64,000 bases of DNA from Candidatus Bathyarchaeota archaeon. GTDB taxonomy: Archaea > Thermoproteota > Bathyarchaeia > Bathyarchaeales > Bathycorpusculaceae. Both the position numbers and the translations under genes were made by a program. Positions within the stretch are counted from its first letter, which is position 1. Each line of letters starts with the position of its first letter. The DNA lies in assembly GCA_963815095.1 (NCBI GenBank), contig CAWFFH010000003.1, positions 1,152,001 to 1,216,000 on the forward strand. The letters are read 5' to 3'. Below are positions 19,201 to 32,088 of this stretch, in pieces. A model generated the notes under the pieces. That model saw only the letters and a program-made list of their open reading frames with translations, searched no databases and was not told the origin of the DNA.

Positions 19201-22397
<3,197 letters not shown>

Positions 22398-31015: not shown

Positions 31016-31519
31016 TTAGTTTGCAAATTGTGTTTGGAAGAGACCGGTTTTTTTTAGTGCCTTAAAGACTGGCCATCCTATGAGAACGGTTGCAATGATG
31101 TTTCCTACGGCTACCCAAGCTATGGTGACTAACAGTGGTAACCCATACAGGTAAGATAGCATCCATCCCACTGTTGTTCCAATGACAATTGAGTATGCTA
31201 TGCATGTTCCGATTACTGTATAGTCGTTTTTGATGCGTTTGTAAACGTAATAGACCACAAAGGACATGACAAAAGAGGGTATGGTGTTAAGTAAGTCTAA
31301 TGGACCAGCTGTTGAAAATATGTTTGCAACGAATACTCCCAAGGTGTGTCCCAAAACTCCGGCTAAACCAAGCAGGGGAACAACACCAAGCATTGCATCC
31401 GCAACACGGAGGTTAACGGGTCCATATGAAAAAGCTCCAAGAACAACAACAAGAACTGCATAAAGTGCAGCATAAATCGCAATTATAGCTATATTTTTTG
31501 TTTGTATTTTCAATTGCAT
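31016..31519 (-). CDS. queT: QueT family 7-deazaguanine precursor transporter
   Basis: AIYAALYAVL...SYGPVNLRVADA and G...ANIF motifs; adjacent to queC. Confidence 0.85.
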   Translation of the reverse strand: MQLKIQTKNIAIIAIYAALYAVLVVVLGAFSYGPVNLRVADAMLGVVPLLGLAGVLGHTLGVFVANIFSTAGPLDLLNTIPSFVMSFVVYYVYKRIKNDYTVIGTCIAYSIVIGTTVGWMLSYLYGLPLLVTIAWVAVGNIIATVLIGWPVFKALKKTGLFQTQFAN

Positions 31520-31592
31520 TTTTCTCCCTACTCCCGGGTTTTATTTTGGTTGGCGGAACGGGTAGGAGAATCAACTCACCCGCCAATTGCCC
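31520..31592 (-). promoter_or_regulatory. Candidate riboswitch (preQ1-I-like H-type pseudoknot) in the queT-queC leader
   Basis: P1 UUGGCGG/CCGCCAA; loop UUCUCCUACCCG complementary to CGGGAGUAGGGAGAA, which contains the SD; A-rich linker AAAAUAAAAC. Confidence 0.55.
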
Positions 31593-31773
31593 ACTAAAAC
31601 TGTGGTGTAGCCTAAAAATGTTGTGAAAGATCTTCCTTTCAAACATTATTTCTTTGGTGTACTTGGGGCAAAAGTAGTTTTTTGTTAGTAAAGAAAGTTT
31701 GACTAAACTTAGTCAAGAAATCTTTACGAAAACGCATTTTACCTATGACTGAAAATAAGCAAGCAATGGAGAA

Positions 31774-31953
31774 GTGAAGGATACGGCGTTAAACCACTAT
31801 GTGATAAATCATAGGCTCTTAATACAAATGCAGAAGAACGGCAATATTTTCTGCGCTATATGTCACCAACCCATCGTTGAAGGACAGCGGGTTGCTTCAA
31901 GAAAAGCCACATCTGTTCGTCATGAAGAGTGCTATGAGCGTTCATTTGTTTAA
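31774..31953 (+). CDS. LIM-like zinc-finger microprotein (59 aa)
   Basis: GTG start after GGAG; CAIC...HEEC; followed by a hairpin and T-tract. Confidence 0.6.
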   Translation: MKDTALNHYVINHRLLIQMQKNGNIFCAICHQPIVEGQRVASRKATSVRHEECYERSFV

Positions 31954-32088
31954 TTAAAGCCCGTCCACATGGGTGGGTGTCTTTTTTTGTTTTGGCGAAA
32001 TATTAATTAGGCTCTCGGAAAGATTAGATGATGCTACTTCCTAGTAGATGGCATTCCGAACCAATGGAGTTTTAGGGAGCACAAAACT

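Follow-up and report, generated by a model that had tools for sequence, protein, structure and literature searches.

The 2024 review of the preQ1 (7-aminomethyl-7-deazaguanine) riboswitch family describes three classes, preQ1-I, preQ1-II and preQ1-III, and the word "archaea" is absent from its searchable text (PMC11625349). As summarised there, preQ1-I riboswitches are linked to queuosine-biosynthesis genes and have been crystallised with preQ0 (7-cyano-7-deazaguanine) as well as with preQ1. Archaea are described as using few riboswitch classes, and those sparingly, mainly the ones for thiamine pyrophosphate (TPP) and fluoride, which bacteria have as well (PMC5473149). Here we consider the leader of the queT-queC operon of a Candidatus Bathyarchaeota archaeon (assembly GCA_963815095.1), which lies on the minus strand of a window of 64,000 nucleotides of contig CAWFFH010000003.1 (positions 1,152,001 to 1,216,000 of the forward strand); positions below are those of the window, and in the genome the leader lies within C3:1183510-1183592. 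There is very little doubt that this leader is a genuine cis-regulatory RNA of 7-deazaguanine genes, both conserved and structured. It is most likely an undescribed, archaea-specific preQ0 riboswitch; it probably binds preQ0 or a close relative of this metabolite and acts by sequestering the Shine-Dalgarno (SD) box. No description of an archaeal preQ0 or preQ1 riboswitch, or of this motif, was found in the full-text literature, supplements and subscription papers being outside the search.

The leader may fold into an H-type pseudoknot (Table 1). Stem P1 encloses a loop of 23 nt (31557-31579). The 3' half of this loop, the candidate anti-SD strand UUCUCCUACCCG, is complementary, with two bulges, to the segment CGGGAGUAGGGAGAA, which stops 2 nt short of the start codon of queT. 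From the first base of P1 to the end of the pseudoknot the structure covers 65 nt (31522-31586). The last two U of the 5' flank GGGCAAUU overlap an extension of P1 that is specific to the window. The queC gene starts 18 nt downstream of queT, and its product is the preQ0 synthase. The leader sequence, the P1 strands, the loop and the TATA-like box of the original prediction match the minus strand exactly (31500-31620), and the bulged pairing of about 12 bp that it proposed between the loop and the SD segment is the one between UUCUCCUACCCG and CGGGAGUAGGGAGAA.

The pairs of P1 and the pseudoknot were counted on three alignments, with 500 shuffles for each. In the MAFFT alignment of the 29 closest relatives 95.7% of the cells are paired, and 7 of 19 pairs have changed on both sides (22 cells; 0/500 shuffles). 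The model-fitted alignment of 91 distinct copies has 95.0% of paired cells, with changes on both sides in 10 of 17 pairs (120 cells; 0/500 shuffles). In the structure-blind MAFFT alignment, again of 91 distinct copies, 93.5% of the cells are paired and 10 of 17 pairs have changed on both sides (107 cells); none of the 500 shuffles matches the cell count or the covariation score, and 11 match the pair count. As a control on this alignment, the partners were slid by 1-3 columns, and pairing fell to 43-63%. The five core pairs of P1 are formed in 100% of the 91 distinct copies, and two of the five covary, the compensatory changes being G:C to C:G in 12 sequences and G:C to A:U in three. In the pseudoknot, 8 of 12 pairs have changed on both sides among the 91 copies, and in its outer part U:A, G:C, C:G, A:U and wobble pairs replace one another within the same columns. 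The lengths of the strands change together as well: an anti-SD that is one base shorter (CCUCC-A compared with CUCCC-A) is accompanied by a shorter SD strand (GGAGG compared with GGGAG). Thus both helices of the original prediction, P1 and the pseudoknot burying the SD box, are conserved and covary in the orthologous leaders.

When the leader is used for a DNA search, 32 of 61 related genomes match, some of them from other families of the order, and such conservation is unusual in non-coding DNA. The MAFFT alignment has the following layout from 5' to 3': a TATA-like box that is conserved, some 25 bases that are not, GGCG[G/C]GUGAG, a stretch that varies, CUCCYACCCGUU[C/G]CGCC, an A-rich linker leading to AAA(A/C)CC, CGG..UAGGGAGG, and the start codon. 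Two covariance models of 77-82 positions were built, R1 from 29 leaders, with the pseudoknot set as a nested helix, and R2 from 94 copies. R1 scores the leader at 92.8 bits. The runner-up has 8.6 bits within the window and 15.9 bits (E about 1) over the whole genome, which thus holds one copy of the motif. In the sample of the class Bathyarchaeia 86 of 151 genomes, belonging to 49 of 79 genera, have a match to R1, as do 68 of the 95 high-quality genomes. In the phylum sample the matches are in 25 of 151 genomes; beyond the class they fall into families f44 (9/15), f56 (3/3) and f60 (1/2), with zero matches to R1 in the large families f38 (0/19) and f42 (0/13). With R2 the number in the phylum sample is 31/151 at E<=0.1, and both genomes of f60 are included.

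A loose pattern scan was made with one genome per species, and the figures refer to the 80 loci listed. Among these, 21 reach at least 50 bits with R1, all of them archaeal, and the next best has 19.4 bits. The strong loci listed come from Bathyarchaeota/Bathyarchaeia (15), Bathycorpusculum (1), Methanomethylicota (1), genomes named "Nitrososphaerota archaeon" (2) and "archaeon" (2). The other listed loci (at most 19.4 bits) were rejected as chance matches in GC-rich bacteria. A stricter pattern of the motif has no match in viral contigs.

The genes downstream of the motif were classified by phmmer or by eye at 100 genome loci and 80 metagenome loci. The genome loci include three duplicates with identical leader rows (L013/L063, L072/L190, L102/L183) and the second copies from three two-copy genomes. 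By phmmer, QueT is encoded first at 158 of the 180 loci: at 89 of the 100 genome loci, in 47 of them followed by QueC, and at 69 of the 80 metagenome loci, in 15 followed by QueC; two more genome loci have a QueT-like gene by eye. A QueE-like radical S-adenosylmethionine (SAM) protein comes first at two genome loci, one of them then with QueC, and at one metagenome locus, also then with QueC. The best NCBIfam matches of these proteins are five QueE models, below the curated cut-offs. QueC followed by QueD is found at one genome locus and at none in the metagenomes, and the QueD protein matches the NCBIfam QueD equivalog above the cut-off. No gene is recognised at one genome locus (a contig end) and at five metagenome loci (three contig ends, two short). 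The association with queT-queC made in the original prediction therefore holds, and widens to queE and queD; the regulon is the same as that of the bacterial preQ1 riboswitches. Among the 180 loci no copy of the motif was seen before unrelated genes. Three genomes (G118, G146 and G169; L217-L222) have two copies of the motif each, before different QueT paralogues, one of which is followed by QueC.

At ten loci, five in the genomes and five in the metagenomes, a multi-pass membrane protein of 232 amino acids stands in for QueT as the first gene after the motif (L060:5324-6022 on the minus strand, L176, L177, L186, L191, L239, L240, L249, L260, L291). P1 has the variant GGCGC/GCGCC in all ten. 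No family of Pfam or NCBIfam matches the protein, nor is it significantly similar to QueT by BLASTP. In the protein atlas it falls among clusters resembling S components of energy-coupling factor (ECF) transporters with a score of 0.94, which can be taken as a lead only. It is a candidate for a new family of 7-deazaguanine importers.

The position of the promoter agrees with transcription of the whole motif. In archaea the distance from the TATA box to the transcription start is about 26 nt. A comparison of 90 distinct upstream regions shows a single peak of the AT fraction (0.78-0.89), at -34..-29 relative to the first base of P1. From this fixed distance and the 26-nt rule the start is expected a few nucleotides upstream of P1; we infer that the mRNA begins 3-8 nt before P1 and carries the entire motif at its extreme 5' end. 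The original prediction depends on a start that does not lie downstream of P1, and the AT peak places the probable start just before this stem. At the other end of the motif, the pseudoknot 3' strand is complementary to the 3' end of the 16S rRNA of this genome (...GGATCACCTCCT), and the loop strand resembles the latter. Hence the pseudoknot 3' strand is a genuine SD region and the loop strand imitates the ribosomal anti-SD.

The following mechanism can be proposed. The mRNA would start a few nucleotides before P1. This stem (GGCGG/CCGCC) would close the loop whose 3' half contains the anti-SD CUCCYACCCG, and the latter would pair with the segment CGGG..UAGGGAGG, which carries the SD box 5 nt before the ATG, to form an H-type pseudoknot. 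The A-rich loop L3 would run along P1, and the loop ends G-U, U-U and C-C would form a pocket. When a 7-deazaguanine end product is plentiful, most likely preQ0 as the substrate of the archaeal tRNA-guanine transglycosylase (TGT), it would stabilise the pseudoknot; the SD box would be buried, and QueT and QueC would not be made, that is, translation would be OFF. When the ligand is scarce, the anti-SD would be held in a hairpin by the SD-like GGGUGAG of L1, or left open, and the ribosome could bind. In this scheme the ligand, the pocket, the transcription start, the OFF logic and the alternative fold are what we infer.

The choice of the ligand follows from the pathway. The genome (G000, 98% complete) has one TGT, a frame of 553 amino acids. 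Its only PTPS/QueD-like gene lies inside a pterin cluster with MptA-, FolB- and FolK-like genes (L165, G000:C5:62118-65462). Neither QueF nor a recognisable QueE was found in this genome. The best candidate for QueE, a radical-SAM protein of 225 amino acids, adjoins the gene for anaerobic ribonucleotide reductase and was rejected, being read as the activase of that enzyme. In the class, a search with one QueE protein query (E<=1e-15) found homologues in two of 151 genomes and none in the other 149. The class may thus be largely auxotrophic for 7-deazaguanines, and queT-queC looks like a salvage route, with import by QueT and then conversion of 7-carboxy-7-deazaguanine (CDG) to preQ0 where QueC is present. 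As preQ0 is the common product of all operon types and the base inserted by the archaeal TGT, it is the first choice for the ligand, CDG or another 7-deazaguanine being second.

The alternative that survives best, unlikely as we consider it, is a riboswitch with a ligand other than preQ0: the QueC substrate CDG, preQ1, the archaeosine base, queuine or an ordinary purine. The QueE search just described gives it some ground, since with QueE not found in the genome or in 149 of 151 genomes of the class QueT-QueC may salvage CDG. In addition, the UU found where class I has its specificity C would go well with a ligand that presents another base-pairing face. However, with CDG as the ligand the switch would shut off its own importer and consumer, which makes sense only under an unusual feed-forward logic, and since no QueF was found the cell is not expected to contain preQ1. 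Operons of queE and queD also follow the motif, as do lone queT genes in genomes that have no queC adjacent; preQ0 is the end product that all of these share.

The unpaired nucleotides of the motif suggest where the preQ0 riboswitch would hold its ligand. Among the unpaired positions, thirteen vary little or not at all over the 91 distinct copies: G14, U15 and G18 of L1, U40 and U41 of L2, and A58-A60, C63 and C64 of L3 are the same in 91/91, G16 in 90/91, and A17 and A56 in 89/91. The tail of L1 beyond GUGAG varies in length from 0 to about 8 further nt, and L3 varies in length upstream of AAA. Where the two stacked helices of an H-type pseudoknot join, the whole of L2 comes together with the 5' end of L1 and the 3' end of L3. 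Six of the thirteen invariant bases, G-U of L1, U-U of L2 and C-C of L3, are situated at this junction between P1 and the pseudoknot. According to the text of the 2024 review, preQ1-I, preQ1-II and preQ1-III all hold the ligand at such a junction (PMC11625349). By this analogy the junction would be the ligand pocket, and C63 or C64 could, as a guess, be the base reading the ligand. The GUGAG of L1 is possibly an SD mimic or a tertiary element.

Invariant unpaired nucleotides and a conserved fold would be expected equally of a protein-binding site. Less likely again than a different ligand is that the pseudoknot binds no metabolite and is instead the operator of a protein that senses 7-deazaguanines or the status of tRNA modification and locks the SD box away; this protein could be the transglycosylase, QueC or some RNA-binding regulator not yet known. 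The small number of riboswitch classes reported to be used by archaea (PMC5473149) is in its favour. On the other hand, no regulator gene accompanies the motif at the 180 loci, the constant neighbours being the regulated genes only, and five different families of first genes follow it. The architecture, moreover, with invariant loop ends lining the helical junction, an A-rich L3 and the SD box within the second helix, is that of the metabolite-sensing pseudoknots of the preQ1 and SAM-II type described in the review (PMC11625349).

Several observations weigh against a preQ0 riboswitch built on this pseudoknot. Firstly, the pair of columns 36/68 in the pseudoknot is unpaired in 46 of the 91 sequences in the register used; these sequences have CGGAG for CGGGAG, and bulging out one A would bring the pair back. 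Secondly, the sequences are related, so that the shuffle controls overstate significance. Thirdly, the invariance is partly built in, as a pattern that fixes P1, GUGAG and CCGUU was the source of 21 of the 94 copies in the alignment and of every one of the 80 from metagenomes; the covariance model also favours its own consensus, which biases the invariance counts. Further, two divergent queT leaders, L224 (G326:C154:7168-7239) and L225 (G045:C60:23082-23155), score 24-30 bits with R2. They retain P1, to which L224 adds C:G at the outer pair, as well as CCG and the anti-SD/SD helix, and have GUGG for GUGAG and AAAA replacing the CGG partner of CCG; in one of them AU stands for UU. These leaders may represent a second subtype of the motif. 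The two QueT genes of another genome of the same phylum, G204, have short leaders in which the motif was not found. In preQ1-I, according to the text of the review, the 3' strand of P1 always follows UC (type 1) or AC (types 2 and 3), and the C reads the ligand (PMC11625349). Here this dinucleotide is replaced by UU before CCGCC in 91/91 copies. The remark in the original prediction that the loop does not fit preQ1-I agrees with this replacement of the specificity C by an invariant UU.

The last of these points concerns the alternative hairpin of the original prediction, Fold B, which would break P1 and free the SD box. It is indeed the minimum-energy fold given by ViennaRNA (-18.5 kcal/mol over 31540-31600; z = -2.0, 6 of 200 shuffles as good), and its columns are 96-98% paired. 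The latter figure is high because the columns barely vary. Covariation of Fold B is not significant, with 0 cells in one count and 2 cells in the 91 copies, and 81 of 500 shuffles equal the latter. One of its pairs is mispaired in 12 of the 91 sequences and another in 22, and the G-to-C change that is compensated within P1 disrupts the fold in 12/91. As conserved structures, Fold B and an inner hairpin compatible with P1 were rejected, since neither has covariation support; they are left only as a possible ON state. As rough estimates, the hairpin has -15.8, P1 -9.6 and the pseudoknot duplex (31559-31570 with CGGGAGUAGGGAGAA) -13.2 kcal/mol. These values are close, so that the two competing states, the hairpin and P1 with the pseudoknot, are similar in stability.

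Over 91 nt comprising the leader and its flanks (31510-31600) the z-score is only -0.24, and the folding of this one sequence alone is not convincing. This would suit a ligand-independent structure inherited with queT, such as a constitutive attenuator, an RNA thermometer or an element of mRNA stability, and a helix sequestering the SD box could by itself damp the translation of a membrane protein. We nevertheless consider such a structure improbable. Thirteen near-invariant unpaired positions conserved over several families and at least two classes go far beyond the needs of an attenuator, and common descent with queT cannot explain the occurrence of the motif before non-homologous genes of the pathway (queE, queC-queD and the second transporter). 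It is scarcely credible that the leader mimics the tRNA D-arm, itself acts as a substrate of the archaeal transglycosylase, and is switched by covalent insertion of preQ0 in place of reversible binding: the TGT gene is present and the near-invariant A-G-U-G-G of L1 recalls A14-G15-Y16..G18-G19 of the D-loop, the site of archaeosine, but a resemblance of five bases is weak, the rest of the motif is unlike tRNA, and we know of no precedent for an irreversible switch on a short-lived mRNA.

Table 1. Features of the queT-queC leader and its surroundings, in coordinates of the window
Feature	Position	Strand	Remarks
Leader	31520-31592	-	upstream of queT, then queC
TATA-like box TTTTTAGG	31611-31618	-	candidate promoter of queT-queC, from sequence and the AT peak in relatives
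Putative transcription start zone and 5' flank GGGCAAUU	31585-31592	-	alignment columns 1-8, unconserved
P1, 5' strand UUGGCGG	31580-31586	-	conserved core GGCGG at 31580-31584
Loop L1 GUGAGUUGA	31571-31579	-	GUGAG (31575-31579) invariant or nearly so
Pseudoknot 5' strand, anti-SD UUCUCCUACCCG	31559-31570	-	pairs with 31522-31536
Loop L2, UU	31557-31558	-	helical junction; invariant in 91/91
P1, 3' strand CCGCCAA	31550-31556	-	core CCGCC at 31552-31556
Loop L3 CCAAAAUAAAACC	31537-31549	-	A-rich; invariant AAA (31540-31542) and CC (31537-31538)
Pseudoknot 3' strand CGGGAGUAGGGAGAA	31522-31536	-	holds the SD box GGGAG (31524-31528)
queT, 167 amino acids	31016-31519	-	ATG at 31517-31519; Pfam QueT 3.4e-22; S component of an ECF-type transporter of 7-deazaguanine precursors
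queC, 218 amino acids	30341-30997	-	Pfam QueC 1.8e-64; NCBIfam TIGR00364 QueC equivalog 2.2e-58, above cut-off
Rejected 77-codon frame	31413-31646		overlaps the leader
Inverted repeat, 46 nt	31685-31730		near-perfect; arms containing TTGACTAA / TTAGTCAA
Small open reading frame, 59 codons	31774-31953	+	divergent from queT
Terminator-like hairpins	31959-31979		strong; downstream of the small frame
23S rRNA	19285-22319		archaeal

The 77-codon frame was rejected as coding, since the indels in relatives are not multiples of three and the changes are paired and compensatory. The inverted repeat lies between queT and the divergent small frame, about 70 nt upstream of the TATA box of queT. In the Rfam search it gives weak matches on both strands to a microRNA model, and it could be a protein-binding site. 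The product of the small frame has a CxxC...C pattern and is without a Pfam match. The 23S rRNA gene of the window is of archaeal type, which identifies the window itself as archaeal. It has no adjoining 16S gene and has a tRNA gene on the opposite strand just upstream. The 3' end of 16S is far off on the same contig, so that the rRNA genes appear to be unlinked.

In its broadest form the proposal, which we put forward tentatively, is that the leader may represent the first riboswitch class confined to archaea and the fourth independent RNA sensor of 7-deazaguanines, with a new G-U/U-U/C-C pocket that is unrelated to those of preQ1-I, preQ1-II and preQ1-III and is tuned to preQ0, the nitrile in use in archaea, and not to preQ1. 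It would govern salvage in the Bathyarchaeia, which, being mostly QueE-less, would be unable to make the base de novo. If validated, it would mean that archaea have evolved metabolite-sensing RNAs of their own, and the ligand family would gain a fourth architecture, of use in studies of convergent RNA recognition. It would also provide a compact SD-burying switch for archaeal genetic tools and a genomic marker of 7-deazaguanine salvage. Such a marker bears on the question of how the Bathyarchaeia, which are uncultured and are abundant in soils and sediments, acquire the precursor of archaeosine from the communities in which they live.

The leader has the general features of a riboswitch: a conserved and covarying 5' leader, genes of one pathway downstream, and an expression platform that overlaps the fold. 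No Rfam 15 family matches 31300-31800 at E<=10. The models of preQ1-I (RF00522), preQ1-II (RF01054) and preQ1-III (RF02680), searched genome-wide, do not match the leader, and twelve diverse members of the motif have no relevant Rfam match at E<=1. The suggestion of a new variant or class of riboswitch, made in the original prediction, is thus favoured by all the computational tests, those of Rfam similarity, covariation, regulated genes and transcription start.

In topology the motif resembles preQ1-I, and shares with it the H-type pseudoknot, a P1 of 5 bp, the A-rich L3, a second helix whose 3' tail bears the SD box, and the expected pocket at the junction of P1 and P2 lined by L1, L2 and L3. 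It also shares with type 3 preQ1-I the location of the whole SD within the pseudoknot helix beside the pocket. The regulated genes are similar too, comprising queT, queC and other genes of the preQ0 pathway; queT is among the genes listed under preQ1 riboswitches in the available text of PMC5372724. However, the 16 weak matches to RF00522 in the genome, none of them at the leader, have at most 17.1 bits compared with the gathering score of 39 bits. The motif covers about 65 nt from P1 to the SD box, whereas the Rfam model has 45 positions. Its second helix of about 12 bp is bulged and buries the whole SD, whereas that of preQ1-I has about 4 bp, and its L1 has 5-17 nt with the invariant GUGAG. 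Finally, the motif is archaeal and preQ1-I bacterial.

The preQ1-II class (COG4708/queT motif) resembles it in the position before queT and in the Watson-Crick pairing of the entire SD in a pseudoknot helix beside the presumed pocket. According to the text of the review, preQ1-II has translational control only, an HLout pseudoknot of four helices with the embedded hairpin P4, and is found in Bacillota only (PMC11625349). The motif differs from it in having two covarying helices, other conserved sequence and no conserved inserted hairpin; indeed, with L3 down to about 9 nt and L1 down to 5 nt in some members there is no room for one. The two weak matches to RF01054 are elsewhere in the genome and have at most 18.4 bits, compared with a gathering score of 47 bits. 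Riboswitches of preQ1-III share with the motif the position before queT and the anti-SD/SD helix as the output. As described in the same review, they are about 100 nt long, with five helices and the SD helix distant from the pocket (PMC11625349), whereas in the motif the SD helix abuts the junction. The single match to RF02680 in the genome, again elsewhere, has 12.7 bits, the gathering score being 63.

The fluoride riboswitch is a small pseudoknot. The archaeal fluoride/crcB and TPP riboswitches are, like the motif, cis-acting leader RNAs in archaeal mRNAs. They differ in being shared with bacteria and in having unrelated ligands, whereas the motif is tied to 7-deazaguanine genes and is archaeal only among the matches listed. 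What places the motif outside preQ1 classes I-III is its size, the length and bulges of its second helix, the invariant GUGAG and, above all, UU. On these sequence comparisons it is a device of a known kind that forms a new class, distinct from preQ1-I, preQ1-II and preQ1-III.

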